Source: a bacterium
Lineage (GTDB): Bacteria; Planctomycetota; UBA11346
Direction: 5' to 3'
Length of the DNA stretch: 64,000 nucleotides
NCBI GenBank assembly: GCA_020047915.1
Contig: JAIFND010000020.1
Coordinates: 467-64,466, forward strand
Within the stretch, counting starts at the first letter, position 1; the number at the start of each line of letters is the position of its first letter. Made by a program: the position numbers and the translations under genes. This document shows positions 8,832-20,010 of this stretch, in pieces. The notes below the pieces were generated by a model. The model ran no database searches. It saw only the letters and a list, made by a program, of their open reading frames with translations, and was not told the origin of the DNA.

Positions 8832-10364
8832 ATGCGCATAAAGCTTTCTCCTACGATGATCTTCCTGACCGGGGCGCTGTTGGTCGGATGCAGCAATGCC
8901 TCCGACCTGCGCCGCTCTGCCGAGCAGCGGATGCCGGTTGATGGTCCGCTGGCCGCCGCTGGTACCGCCGAACGTCTCGCTGCCCGCGCCGAGGCCGCGC
9001 CGATCACCGCCGAACGCCCGCTCCCCGAACCCCTGTCGATCCAGGCCTGCATCGCCTGGGCCCTCGAACACAATCGTGATCTGCGGGGTCAGATCAGTGT
9101 CGCCGAGCGTTCGCGCTTGGACGTGACGACCGCACGCAGCGCGACCTACGCTCCGCGCCTGACCGCCAGTGCCGGCCGGACGCTGACCAGCGATGCCGCC
9201 GGGACCGAGCGCTCCGATGAGGCCGAGGCGCGCATCGCACTGAACACCAACCTGCTCGGCTTCACCTTGTCACCCTATGCCAGCAGCTCCTGGAGCGACC
9301 CCGACAGCACGGGCGATGCGACGCCCTATGCCGGGGCGGTCGGCATCTCGATCGGTCGCCGCCTCTTTGCACTGCATGAGGACGCCCGGTTGTCGGCGCA
9401 GCTCAGCCAGGCCGACCGTTCTTTCACCAAATCGGTCAACAGCCTCGCCCTGCGCTCCCGGCGCATGGCCCTGGATGCGGCGCGGGCCTTCTACGACCTG
9501 CAGAAGGCGGAAACGCGCATCCGGCTGCGCGAGAGCCGGCTCGAGCAGGCCAAGGTGTTCCTCGCCAGTGTCCGTGAATCGGTGGCGGCTGGGCTCAAGG
9601 CCCCGGTCGAGGAGACCAACGCCCTGATCGACTTCAACCAGGCCGAGGCCAACCTGCTCAGCGACCGCCAATCGGTGGCCAACGCCAGGGATCGCCTGCT
9701 GTCGCTCCTCGACCGTCCACTCGGCGGATCCATCGCCATCCTGCCCTCGGACGTGACCGGGGTCAGGCCGGTCCTGCCTGAACTCGCCAGCGACATCACC
9801 CAGGTCCTCGTCCAGCACGAGGATCTCCTCAATCTGCGCATCGAACTTGAGCAGAGTCGCGAGGACACCGCCATCGCGCTCGACCGGCTGGCGCCCCAGG
9901 TGACCGCCACCGCCTCGGCAGCGCGGCACTGGGAGGGCGATCAGCCTTCAGGTTTCGGTCAGACCGAGGATGTCGTCGCGCTGAAGCTCGAACTCGACAT
10001 GCCACTCGACGCCTGGTCGGGCGAGCGGGCCGGCCTGCGCAAGCAGGAACGCCAGCAGCGTGAGTTGCGCCTGCGCCTGCGCTCGTCCGAGATGGACCTT
10101 GAACGCCAGGTCCGCGAACTGCGCCGCCGCATCGAGGTGCAGTTGCGCACGGTGCAGTTGTCGATCCAGCGGCTTGAGGCCGAACGTGCCAAGTTTGCCG
10201 CCACCGAGGCCAGCTACCGTACTGGTCGGGTGGACAACCTCGAACTGACCCGTGCCCGCGAGACGGTCGATCGTGCCGAGGTCGATCTGCTGGAAGCCCG
10301 CATCGATCTGGTGCTGGCCCTGGCCGAACGCGAGGCCCTGGTGCCTGCGGAGGCGGTGCGGTGA
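8832..10364 (+). CDS. TolC-family outer-membrane efflux protein (lipoprotein signal)
   Basis: 510 aa. Lipobox LLVGC. Two-repeat helical OEP-like sequence (LSIQACIAWALEHNRDL..., ...ARIDLVLALAEREAL). GTGA overlap with the next gene. Confidence 0.85.
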   Translation: MRIKLSPTMIFLTGALLVGCSNASDLRRSAEQRMPVDGPLAAAGTAERLAARAEAAPITAERPLPEPLSIQACIAWALEHNRDLRGQISVAERSRLDVTTARSATYAPRLTASAGRTLTSDAAGTERSDEAEARIALNTNLLGFTLSPYASSSWSDPDSTGDATPYAGAVGISIGRRLFALHEDARLSAQLSQADRSFTKSVNSLALRSRRMALDAARAFYDLQKAETRIRLRESRLEQAKVFLASVRESVAAGLKAPVEETNALIDFNQAEANLLSDRQSVANARDRLLSLLDRPLGGSIAILPSDVTGVRPVLPELASDITQVLVQHEDLLNLRIELEQSREDTAIALDRLAPQVTATASAARHWEGDQPSGFGQTEDVVALKLELDMPLDAWSGERAGLRKQERQQRELRLRLRSSEMDLERQVRELRRRIEVQLRTVQLSIQRLEAERAKFAATEASYRTGRVDNLELTRARETVDRAEVDLLEARIDLVLALAEREALVPAEAVR

Positions 10365-17998: not shown

Positions 17999-20010
17999 TG
18001 GCCGCCAACCTCATCTCGATCCGGGGGCTTTCGCGCATCTATCGCATGGGCGACAACGAGGTGCGCGCCCTCGACCAGATCGATCTCGACATCGCCGAGG
18101 GTGAGTTCGTCGCCATCGTCGGCCCTTCGGGCTCGGGAAAATCGACCCTGATGTACGTCCTTGGCTGCCTCGACCGGCCGAGCGACGGATCCTATCTCCT
18201 GGGCGGTGTCGATGTCGGCGCGCTTGATGACGCGGCCCTGTCGCAGGTGCGCAACCGGGAGATCGGCTACATCTTCCAGTCCTTCAACCTACTCAACGAC
18301 CTCAGCGTGGTGGACAACGTCGCCCTGGGCCTGGTCTATGCCGGCGAGGACCCCGCCCGCCGCCAGGAGACGGCGCAGGCCCTGGCCACCCGCTTCGGCC
18401 TGGGCAACCGTCTCAGCCACACCCCGAACGAACTTTCGGGCGGCCAGATGCAGCGCGTCGCCATCGCCCGCGGGCTGGCCTGCAGACCGCGTCTGGTGCT
18501 GGCCGACGAACCGACCGGCAACCTCGATTCGCGCACCGGCGCCGAGATCATGGCGATGTTCCGGCGGCTCAACGCTGCCGGCCATACCGTCGTCCTGGTG
18601 ACCCACGATCCTGGTGTGGCGGCGCAGGCCGACCGCGCGGTGCGCATCGTCGATGGCAAGATCGTCTCGGACGAAAGCAACCAGCGCCCGGCTGGCGAGC
18701 CATCCTCAAGTTCCGGTTCGGGGCGGCTGGCGGCTGGCGGTGACATCGCCGATGTGCCCAAGCCGCAAGGCGAGGGGGTGATCAAATCGGGGGACACGCT
18801 GCGCATCGCCGTGCACGAGGGGCTGCTGGCGCATAAGATGCGCAGCGCCCTGACCATGCTCGGCATCGTGTTCGGGATCGCCTCGGTCATCGCCATGACC
18901 GCGATAACCGAAGGCGGCAAGCAGCGTCAGCTGGAGCAGATCCGCCAGATCGGCATGAATGCCATCCAGGTGCGCAGCCTGAACCTCGATGGCGCGCGCC
19001 TGCTCGCCCAGCGCCGGGTCAATCCCGACGGCATCACCACCGAGGATCTCACCAGCCTCCGGCGGCACATCGACGGGATCGAGGCCTCGGCGGCCTGGAA
19101 AGAACTGAAGGCCGAGGTCCGGCTGGGCGATCGCCTCGCCACCGACGCGACCCCGCAGGGGGTCACCGGCGATCTGCAGGCCGTGCTCGACTTCCATGTC
19201 GAGAAGGGGCGCTTCCTTGATGCCGGTGACGAATCGGCAGCCGCGCGCGTATGCGTGCTGGGAGCGGACGTGGCCGCCAGCCTGGAGGCCACCCCTGGTT
19301 CGGCCGTGACGGTGGGCGACCAGTTGCTGACTGTCGTCGGCGTAATGGGGCGCAAGGCCTATGCCACCAGCGAGATCAGCGACATCGCGATCTCCAATCG
19401 CAACCGTGACGTCTATCTGCCCTACAGCACCCTGCGCGCCTATTACCGCAAGGTCATCCGCGACACCCAGGTGGATGCCATCGCCTTGCGCATGGCCAGC
19501 GACGAAGGGCTGGTCGAACGCAGCCAGCTCGCCCGGCGCATCGTCTCCGACCTGCACCGGGGGGCCGAGGACTTCATCGTCTCGGTGCCGCTTGAGACCC
19601 TGCGTCAGGCCCAGGCCACCCGCGAGGTGTTCAACCTGCTGATCATCGTCATCGCTGCGATCAGCCTGATCGTCGGCGGTATCGGCATCATGAACATCAT
19701 GCTGGCGACGGTGACCGAGCGTACCCGCGAGATCGGCATCCGCCGGGCCGTCGGCGCCAGCCGGCGCACCGTCCTGGCCCAGTTCCTCGCCGAGGCGAGC
19801 ATGCTGTCGCTGACCGGTGGCATCATCGGACTGCTCGCCGGGGTGGCCGGTGCCCTGGCGGTCGAGGCCGTCTTCGGCTTCACCGTCGCCTTCGATCCGC
19901 TGATCGCCGTGCTGGCGGTGTGCGTGTCGGTCGCCATCGGCATCGGCTTCGGCCTCTACCCGGCGTGGAAGGCGGCGCGCATGGATCCGGTCGAGGCGCT
20001 GCGCAACTGA
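17998..20010 (+). CDS. macB: MacB-type ABC transporter (fused ATPase + FtsX-like permease)
   Basis: 670 aa. Walker A GPSGSGKST, signature LSGGQMQRVAIARG, Walker B LVLADEPTGNLD. Large periplasmic loop and four TM helices, ending AWKAARMDPVEALR. Confidence 0.92.
   Translation: MAANLISIRGLSRIYRMGDNEVRALDQIDLDIAEGEFVAIVGPSGSGKSTLMYVLGCLDRPSDGSYLLGGVDVGALDDAALSQVRNREIGYIFQSFNLLNDLSVVDNVALGLVYAGEDPARRQETAQALATRFGLGNRLSHTPNELSGGQMQRVAIARGLACRPRLVLADEPTGNLDSRTGAEIMAMFRRLNAAGHTVVLVTHDPGVAAQADRAVRIVDGKIVSDESNQRPAGEPSSSSGSGRLAAGGDIADVPKPQGEGVIKSGDTLRIAVHEGLLAHKMRSALTMLGIVFGIASVIAMTAITEGGKQRQLEQIRQIGMNAIQVRSLNLDGARLLAQRRVNPDGITTEDLTSLRRHIDGIEASAAWKELKAEVRLGDRLATDATPQGVTGDLQAVLDFHVEKGRFLDAGDESAAARVCVLGADVAASLEATPGSAVTVGDQLLTVVGVMGRKAYATSEISDIAISNRNRDVYLPYSTLRAYYRKVIRDTQVDAIALRMASDEGLVERSQLARRIVSDLHRGAEDFIVSVPLETLRQAQATREVFNLLIIVIAAISLIVGGIGIMNIMLATVTERTREIGIRRAVGASRRTVLAQFLAEASMLSLTGGIIGLLAGVAGALAVEAVFGFTVAFDPLIAVLAVCVSVAIGIGFGLYPAWKAARMDPVEALRN

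Follow-up and report, generated by a model that had tools for sequence, protein, structure and literature searches.

In MacAB-TolC of Escherichia coli (PDB 5NIK; MacA 3FPP), the transporter MacB joins an N-terminal ATPase to a four-transmembrane (4-TM) FtsX fold that carries a core domain in the periplasm, and a single adaptor of ~370 aa, the TM-anchored MacA with its beta-barrel and membrane-proximal (MP) domains, connects it as a homohexamer to the TolC duct. ATP hydrolysis by the MacB dimer is coupled to movements of the periplasmic domains that expel periplasmic or outer-leaflet substrates through the MacA hexamer into TolC, with three protomers of the adaptor opposite each protomer of MacB (PMC5985334, PMC8277102). 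A 64,000-nucleotide stretch of planctomycete DNA (positions 467-64,466 of contig JAIFND010000020.1, assembly GCA_020047915.1; hereafter the window) carries an operon (8832-20010, + strand) of five overlapping open reading frames (ORFs) that resembles this system in its transporter architecture, its TolC-family duct, its TM-anchored adaptor with beta-barrel and MP domains and its organization as a single operon. It differs in having three adaptor genes with five membrane fusion protein (MFP) modules and longer hairpins, an arrangement that departs from the single-adaptor homohexamer (MacA6:MacB2:TolC3). The operon probably encodes a MacB-type exporter in which the three adaptors, here called P2, P3 and P4 after their order in the operon, stand side by side as a mixed sleeve leading onto a TolC-family duct.

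Adaptor fusion as such has precedent. DSY0927 of Desulfitobacterium hafniense is a natural fusion of two MFPs with an ABC-type transporter; in the passage of PMC4338810 concerned with it, which cites Zgurskaya et al. 2009, it is noted from sequence only, its N-terminal half is without a coiled coil, and its host is discussed as Gram-positive, with no TolC partner. P2 and P3 are set apart from DSY0927, as there described, by ~190-residue hairpins in both modules and by the accompanying gene for an outer-membrane factor (OMF). TriABC-OpmH of Pseudomonas aeruginosa has non-identical adaptors that are encoded side by side and thought to be non-equivalent within one hexamer (PMC4446572, PMC13328181). 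P2, P3 and P4 are similarly encoded together with one transporter, being coupled to MacB and kept together in relatives, whereas the transporter of TriABC belongs to the resistance-nodulation-division (RND) family and its adaptors, TriA and TriB, are two unfused proteins of ordinary length with one module each. EmrA and HlyD (PDB 4TKO, 8ZAR) share very long alpha-hairpins and the lack of an MP domain with the second modules of P2 and P3, and EmrA is the top Foldseek match of P3, but they are single-module proteins that serve major facilitator superfamily or type I secretion ABC transporters without a large periplasmic domain. DevBCA-HgdD of Anabaena is a MacB-family tripartite glycolipid exporter with a TolC-like partner and a role in building the envelope (PMC8277102); its ATPase (DevA) and permease (DevC) are made as two proteins, with DevB as the one adaptor, whereas the transporter in the window is fused. 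The remark of the first-pass annotation, that it knew of no described tripartite pump with tandem-fused adaptors, was therefore overstated with respect to DSY0927 and the two-adaptor pump TriABC, both of which figure in reviews. The MacB-linked 2+2+1 arrangement appears new to the literature, in which no MacB pump with tandem-fused adaptors and no planctomycete MacB or HlyD system was found to be described.

The five ORFs, with coordinates (Table 1) as in the first-pass annotation, are translationally coupled exactly as had been proposed there: gene 1 and P2 share a GTGA (10361-10364), P2 and P3 overlap by 14 nucleotides (P2 stop at 12862, P3 ATG at 12849, the start picked by gene callers on identical public contigs), and the P3/P4 and P4/MacB junctions are both TGATG (15978-15982 and 17996-18000). 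No terminator-like site was found on the + strand within the five-gene block. The adaptor ORFs are not chance ORFs, because P2, P3 and P4 have full-length homologues at 41-86% identity with nearly constant lengths. The product of gene 1, which has a lipoprotein-type N-terminus (lipobox LVGC), matches Pfam OEP (1.3e-30, two repeats) as well as TIGR01844 and TIGR01845 (both under cut-off), and is predicted to be a TolC/OprM-family OMF, the partner expected of a MacB-type pump. Gene 5 aligns far over the cut-offs with ABC_tran (residues 25-173, 7.5e-30), MacB_PCD (283-502, 5e-32) and FtsX (550-664, 4.2e-21), and its layout, with the ATPase at the N-terminus, a 4-TM permease of the FtsX type fused behind it and a large periplasmic core domain between TM1 and TM2, is that of a complete MacB-type (type VII ABC) transporter, as judged by sequence. 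These matches bear out the earlier call of a TolC/MacB-type operon. The MacB equivalog model NF007826 aligns with gene 5 from end to end at 474 bits, against a cut-off of 966 bits, and a DevA model gives a good score over the ATPase domain alone; the protein is thus classed by its sequence as a MacB family member but not as a MacB equivalog or as an orthologue of E. coli MacB. This score, together with the ~375-aa helical region of P4, sets the operon apart from E. coli MacAB.

That MFP adaptors adjoin the transporter gene is indicated by matches to Pfam HlyD_3 over the gathering score in P2, P3 and P4, by the adaptor folds found with AlphaFold2 (AF2) and Foldseek in P2 and P3, and by a match of P4 to MacA at residues 516-669. 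The NCBIfam models RND_mfp (P2, P3 and P4), CzcB (P2), a type I HlyD model (P3) and the MacA equivalog (P4) also match, all under cut-off. Folds of this kind had been anticipated for the 833-aa and 1043-aa proteins, and were found by Foldseek in both (AcrA, MacA, EmrA and MexA, with E values down to 1.8e-15 for P2 and 5.4e-07 for P3). Searching the PDB by sequence with P2, P3 and P4 gave no meaningful match, fold comparison being required.

P2 (833 aa) is predicted to be a lipoprotein and a tandem-fused two-module MFP. Its lipobox is LLGAC, and Cys15 is invariant in 18 homologues, which also formed the input alignment of its AF2 model (mean predicted local distance difference test score, pLDDT, 80). 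The top fifty Foldseek matches listed from the PDB are all periplasmic adaptors (AcrA, MacA, EmrA, MexA, ZneB, CusB, Spr0693), and matches to HlyD_3 (282-388), RND_mfp (275-450) and CzcB (631-781) are distributed along the protein. Module 1 has its hairpin tip at ~178-185 (GSPVSGSEL) and its barrel end at LRPGMSMACRLAV; module 2 has its tip at 604-610 (AGGISD) and ends its barrel in PPGSTVHVDF. The two modules align with each other (hhalign probability 97.7%, E 2.4e-12), and module 1 aligns with the beta-barrel and MP region of P4 (E 3e-13).

P3 (1043 aa) is a paralogue of P2 whose modules follow in the same order, the first of them carrying an insertion, because P2 module 1 aligns with the N-terminal region of P3 (hhalign E 9e-14) and the second modules match each other (E 1.4e-17). 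Profiles made separately for the two modules give the same picture in relatives of ~1000-1084 aa, where the module-1 match is split by an insertion of 250-350 aa. The AF2 model of P3 (mean pLDDT 75, from an alignment of 13 homologues) has adaptors only among its Foldseek matches, with EmrA first and MexA and AcrA also present. The first-pass annotation had read P3 as two tandem modules, which holds for the number of modules; it had overlooked an insertion of ~200 aa in the first of them. The insertion begins with a linker (329-378) that is disordered in the model (pLDDT <50) and continues as a beta-sandwich that matches nothing in Pfam at E<=10 and has the protein YxiM (2o14) as its best, non-significant match among PDB profiles (E 0.18). 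Its sequence pattern is vaguely suggestive of malectin/CBM-type sandwiches. Invariant residues of the insertion include W393, Y402, G409, D410, W414, D415 and G416. The linker itself is Gly/Pro/Arg-rich and of low complexity, with runs of eight and three Gly codons and one alignment gap column between them; it is highly variable in length and sequence among homologues, being nearly missing in P0028. Beyond the sandwich, P3 460-661 aligns with P2 281-454 at 88.6% probability (hhalign, E 2.6e-06), the weakest of the five module assignments, and module 2, with its hairpin tip at 806-812 and its barrel end GAKGWLRVP, matches both HlyD_3 and the type I HlyD model. Lipoprotein signals had been assigned to both giant adaptors, an assignment that stands for P2 but not for P3, in which the N-terminal Cys is unconserved and the residues around it make a poor lipobox; on sequence grounds an ordinary signal peptide or an anchor is more likely there.

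P4 (672 aa) is predicted to be a single-module, membrane-anchored, MacA-like adaptor. It has an N-terminal TM helix (residues ~9-27) and matches HlyD_3 (2.8e-09), RND_mfp (506-667) and the MacA equivalog (516-669 at 2.4e-04, under cut-off), with its barrel ending in LRQGMAARVEIVL; the NCBI label of the window's own P4 is 'hypothetical protein DCS97_04805 [Planctomycetes bacterium]'. A hairpin of ~330 aa had been proposed for this protein. By a helix-propensity threshold for which the AF2 helices in P2 and P3 served as calibration, and which captures 60-75% of them, the helix-prone region is instead ~375 aa long (95-470), with 70% of its residues helix-prone versus 6-12% in the flanks. Its length equals about four P2/P3 arms or about twice a P2/P3 hairpin. 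No significant internal repeat and no similarity to the P2/P3 hairpins was found in it (all hhalign probabilities <8%), and when conserved Gly/Pro breaks were searched for symmetry the best centres lay at 279-294 with a mean deviation of ~7 residues, none of them decisive. The region may be either one hairpin of ~27 nm or a folded bundle. The 484-aa single MFP of a relative (locus L011) aligns significantly with P4 in the beta-barrel/MP part only.

The proposed count of 2+2+1 modules is upheld by the duplication and paralogy detected with hhalign and by the AF2 models: as in fused adaptors of the DSY0927 type, there are two modules per polypeptide, evident as an internal duplication in P2 and as a beta/hairpin/beta unit that occurs twice in P2 and likewise in P3. 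Both proteins have an MP-like domain in module 1 and none in module 2, and in all five modules, P4 included, the barrel closes with the usual '(L)xPG...' strand. The hairpins are long, as had been suspected, with AF2 up arms at 85-178 and 513-604 in P2 and 70-162 and 717-806 in P3, or about 90-95 residues each. All four hairpins have a kink 56-58 residues above the base, and conserved Gly/Ser residues mark the tips (G180/V183, G606/S609 and G164/S167). At ~1.5 Å per residue the predicted length is ~135-140 Å, about twice that of the E. coli MacA hairpin. The canonical TolC-binding motif R-x3-L-x6-S is only partially present at the tips (invariant R169/L173/G180 in P2; R156/E160/S167 in P3). 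The chain of an MFP starts and ends at the membrane-proximal end of the fold, and the linker between the modules of P2 is short, the MP-like strands ending at ~451 and the strands of module 2 beginning at 463 in the model. Because module 1 ends in its MP domain ~10 residues before module 2, the two modules would lie side by side with co-directional hairpins, and the models argue that serial stacking within one polypeptide is excluded.

Table 1. Features of the operon and neighbouring ORFs, in window coordinates; domain boundaries are predicted
Feature	Position	Strand	Description
Gene 1, OMF	8832-10364	+	510 aa
P2	10361-12862	+	833 aa
P2 module 1	10433-11740	+	residues ~25-460, AF2 secondary structure: beta 28-83; hairpin 85-279; lipoyl/beta-barrel 282-397; MP-like domain 404-451
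P2 module 2	11741-12859	+	residues ~461-833, AF2: beta 463-506; hairpin 513-697; beta-barrel 702-832; no MP domain
P3	12849-15980	+	1043 aa from ATG; 1056 aa from upstream GTG at 12810
P3 AF2 order, first unit			beta 20-68; helices 70-269; beta 273-323; disordered Gly-rich 329-378; beta-sandwich 382-505; beta 530-660
P3 insertion	13833-14363	+	Gly-rich linker 329-378 (13833-13982), then beta-sandwich 382-505; interrupts module 1
P3 module 1 beta-barrel and MP-like part	14436-14828	+	residues ~530-660; motif LAPGEQVGLVLRF
P3 module 2 (second unit in AF2 order)	14898-15977	+	residues ~684-1043: beta 684-715; helices (hairpin) 717-903; beta (beta-barrel) 905-1041
P4	15980-17998	+	672 aa
P4 helical region	16262-17389	+	residues ~95-470, ~375 aa
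Gene 5, MacB	17998-20010	+	670 aa
FolD fusion	6016-8718	-	900 aa
Mla-type ABC system	20026-23457	-	MlaE, ABC ATPase, 547-aa MlaD-like protein
ORFs without a Pfam family at E<=0.001	43274-46843	+	1189 aa
	28938-31190	-	749 aa
	252-1967	+	571 aa
	1995-3011	-	337 aa

A word-indexed search of 5.8 billion proteins returned 18, 13 and 29 homologue clusters for P2 (45-81% identity), P3 (50-79%; lengths 1010-1050 aa) and P4 (41-86%), with all but one of the P4 clusters near full length (28/29, 661-675 aa; the other a 399-aa partial sequence), and three loci turned up when one genome per species was scanned, each of them in a metagenome-assembled genome (MAG) of Planctomycetota. Closer relatives among the Planctomycetota MAGs have the same five-gene cassette with nearly identical gene lengths (478-834-1038-672-661 aa in L001 and 504-828-1032-661-658 aa in a second), and diverged versions occur in L009/L010 (548-853-1084-677-664 aa) and L013 (529-893-999-708-660 aa). 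With a hidden Markov model profile of P2, 5323 matches at E<=1e-3 were found among 1.84 billion representatives, of which 240 were at <=1e-10 and 59 at <=1e-30; the order module 1 to module 2 is present in 65 of the best 150 representatives at 50% identity (median 853 aa). More distant relatives have a simpler 2+1 cassette, in which a tandem MFP of 848-875 aa is combined with one single MFP of 423-484 aa and with a MacB of ~658 aa, accompanied by an OEP gene in L011 but not in L017, L018 or L019. By source names the tandem-MFP relatives belong to Planctomycetota, Lentisphaerota/Lentisphaeraceae and Kiritimatiellota, the latter two phyla having members of the ~850-870-aa class, and the 2+1 cassette is carried by a Kiritimatiellota isolate with a complete genome (B12222). 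Their labels are generic ('hypothetical', 'biotin/lipoyl-containing protein', 'HlyD family...', 'AcrA'), and the neighbourhoods of the cassettes differ between lineages.

Tandem adaptors with MacB are thus a trait found in several phyla of the Planctomycetes-Verrucomicrobia-Chlamydiae (PVC) group. The 2+1 version is ancestral-looking and the one in the window the most elaborate: its tandem gene is duplicated, it has an inserted domain, its single adaptor has a helical region of twice the length, and an OMF gene has been added. The first-pass annotation had named membership of an already characterised, widespread family as something that would refute it; half of this applies, since the family is spread over the PVC phyla but is uncharacterised. 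In L017 (2113-13282, a JGI metagenome) and L018 (6514-17907, isolate B12222) the 2+1 cassette has the same flanking order, with a DUF1570 gene upstream and, downstream, genes for an outer-membrane beta-barrel (BBP2_2), for a small protein and for a Wzy_C protein resembling O-antigen ligase, with rpsO and pnp next in line, a possible hint at a surface-glycan or envelope link. Other double adaptors with a different module order exist, because the 936-aa P0136 of L015 (1165-3975) has its match to the P2 module-1 profile (63-458) in its C-terminal half (528-932); precomputed Pfam matches over the whole of P0136 are to YknX/YbhG-type adaptor domains.

As proposed here, the five genes would make up a chromosomal operon whose products, translated together, build a tripartite exporter of the MacB type (type VII ABC), in which P2, P3 and P4 co-assemble into one hetero-oligomeric sleeve, the two modules of each fusion taking adjacent places as protomers do in the hexamers of MacA or AcrA. 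A precedent for adaptors that work as non-equivalent pairs is provided by TriABC and by fused AcrA dimers (PMC4446572, PMC13328181). The MP domain of P4 would be expected to contact and activate MacB, the P2/P3 hairpins (~13-14 nm) would give a longer reach across the periplasm, and the adaptor tunnel would dock onto the trimeric TolC-family duct encoded by gene 1. The most economical stoichiometry, which is unproven, has three non-equivalent adaptor positions per MacB protomer: the simpler relatives may place one tandem fusion and one single MFP on each, and the window P2 with P4 on one protomer and P3 with P4 on the other. Three specialised positions per MacB protomer are suggested because two sets of the 2+1 adaptors make six. 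The substrate role may be envelope-related or one of general detoxification rather than that of an accessory resistance gene, because the neighbourhood is a housekeeping one and the system is conserved across related phyla.

Several points weigh against a mixed sleeve of this kind or against the reasons offered for it. A hexamer cannot be filled evenly from five modules per gene set, and the required 1:1:2 ratio is not what equimolar coupled expression would yield. A ring of uniform height would need P4 to fold back, its helical region being twice as long as the P2/P3 hairpins, and no internal repeat was detected there. The assignment of the barrel and MP part of P3 module 1 is moderately supported, given the 88.6% probability quoted above. 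The rationale of a wide periplasm is weakened by Lentisphaerota and Kiritimatiellota, which have tandem MFPs of similar length (hairpin length being judged by eye in one relative, L011) and for which we know of no evidence of an enlarged periplasm. Long hairpins are in any case no unique trait, that of EmrA, given in a passage of PMC4158417 as the longest solved for an adaptor, being 127 Å and comparable to those of P2 and P3. The first-pass annotation had supposed an adaptation to an unusually wide or complex periplasm. The hairpin length would fit the planctomycete periplasm, which is documented as enlargeable (PMC5394234), but the trait is not specific to the planctomycete cell plan.

The properties of P4 may also be accommodated by a two-tier or concentric assembly, in which a P4 hexamer surrounds MacB and continues as a straight tube of ~25-28 nm to the OEP protein while trimers of P2 and/or P3 brace its lower half as a separate ring or sheath: among the adaptors, P4 alone combines a TM anchor with a C-terminal match to MacA, its helical region has about double the length of the P2/P3 hairpins, and a trimer of a fused dimer naturally makes a six-fold ring, an argument already put forward for fused AcrA and for DSY0927 (PMC4446572). 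Such an assembly is unlikely, since the single MFP of the 2+1 cassettes is only 423-484 aa long with a helical region of about the tandem hairpin length (in the one sequence inspected), so that a long inner tube is not family-wide, and since P2 module 1 has an MP-like domain of its own and a lipid anchor, traits of a transporter-contacting adaptor. Nor do we know of any pump with concentric adaptor rings. A still less probable arrangement has P2 and P3 as interchangeable adaptors, each joining P4 and MacB separately to give two variants of the pump, with the beta-sandwich of P3 conferring a distinct specificity, for example for glycan or peptidoglycan; the paralogy and identical module order of P2 and P3, the sufficiency of one tandem gene in the 2+1 relatives and the conservation of the extra domain would suit it, yet every five-gene cassette retrieved keeps both genes, overlapping and of constant length, as expected of obligate partners, and there is no regulatory element between them. 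The chance that the giant adaptor genes are products of assembly or frameshift fusion of ordinary MFP genes is negligible: the window does come from a MAG, and DNA of 70% G+C yields long spurious ORFs, but identical genes are found on independent assemblies (ENA, Logan, NCBI) and the module order recurs in the 65 representatives mentioned above, including a protein from the complete isolate genome of B12222. This artefact was ruled out by the conservation data.

Compatible with a mixed sleeve or with any other architecture is a possible, though not the favoured, role in envelope biogenesis like that of DevBCA-HgdD or Lol systems, in which a lipid, glycolipid or lipoprotein would be moved from the inner to the outer membrane or the cell surface, either inside the adaptor scaffold or along it. 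MacB-family systems have such roles (PMC8277102), the operon has housekeeping genes around it and its conservation extends over the PVC phyla, the cassettes of L017 and L018 adjoin BBP2_2 barrel and Wzy_C genes, and the genes convergent to the operon in the window encode an Mla-type lipid transporter; against this, the neighbourhoods vary by lineage, so that no substrate-related gene is consistently linked, and the transporter is of the MacB type with fused nucleotide-binding and transmembrane domains, not the split DevCA or LolCDE. A wider evolutionary scenario, entertained here with considerable doubt, is that PVC bacteria have a dedicated asymmetric design of MacB adaptors (a fused pair and a single per protomer) that solves the mismatch between C2 MacB and C3 TolC genetically rather than conformationally, and that in the lineage of the window the pair was duplicated, one copy gained a beta-sandwich and the helical region of the single doubled, giving the longest and most heteromeric sleeve known, possibly for essential export across an enlarged periplasm.

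The operon would be of value chiefly as a naturally occurring case in which to study how adaptors differ from one another and how PVC bacteria build envelope-spanning machines. How six adaptors bridge a two-fold transporter and a three-fold duct is still debated, with evidence so far from artificial AcrA fusions and TriABC; a natural family with hard-wired adaptor positions, if that is what these genes encode, would be a system for assigning a role to each position; more than 60 diverged two-module representatives were found here, and at least one cultured isolate has the cassette. It would likewise offer a handle on how envelope-spanning machines cope with the width of the periplasm in Planctomycetota and their relatives, and would improve the annotation of genes now called 'hypothetical', 'biotin/lipoyl-containing' or generic 'HlyD family'.

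The operon is located in the core chromosome and in no island. G+C content is even (66-74%), and the neighbouring genes are housekeeping ones, encoding a FolD/homocysteine-methyltransferase fusion, AmtB, a Ser/Thr kinase, PheT, a monomeric isocitrate dehydrogenase and ZnuA. A mobile element or resistance island was considered and ruled out by these neighbours, the even G+C and the zero matches to Rfam. The fusion gene, which is divergent to the operon, joins FolD (tetrahydrofolate dehydrogenase/cyclohydrolase) to homocysteine S-methyltransferase and a weakly methylenetetrahydrofolate reductase-like C-terminal region; its position upstream is kept in both of the closer relatives (L001 and the 504-828-1032-661-658 cassette). 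Convergent to the MacB gene is the Mla-type ABC system, with MlaE identified by Pfam (6e-71). In its MlaD-like protein the MCE domain accounts for residues 36-112 only and is followed by ~5 tandem 'VAENR...' repeats (residues ~175-300) and a beta-rich C-terminal domain of ~170 aa; precomputed Pfam hints are Helical_needle (faint) and Aq_493_lipo. MlaD of E. coli has ~183 aa, and the system beside the operon may be another lengthened envelope-spanning machine. Some of the long Pfam-less ORFs of the window (Table 1) may be shadow ORFs of opposite-strand genes in DNA of 70% G+C, and others may encode lineage-specific proteins.

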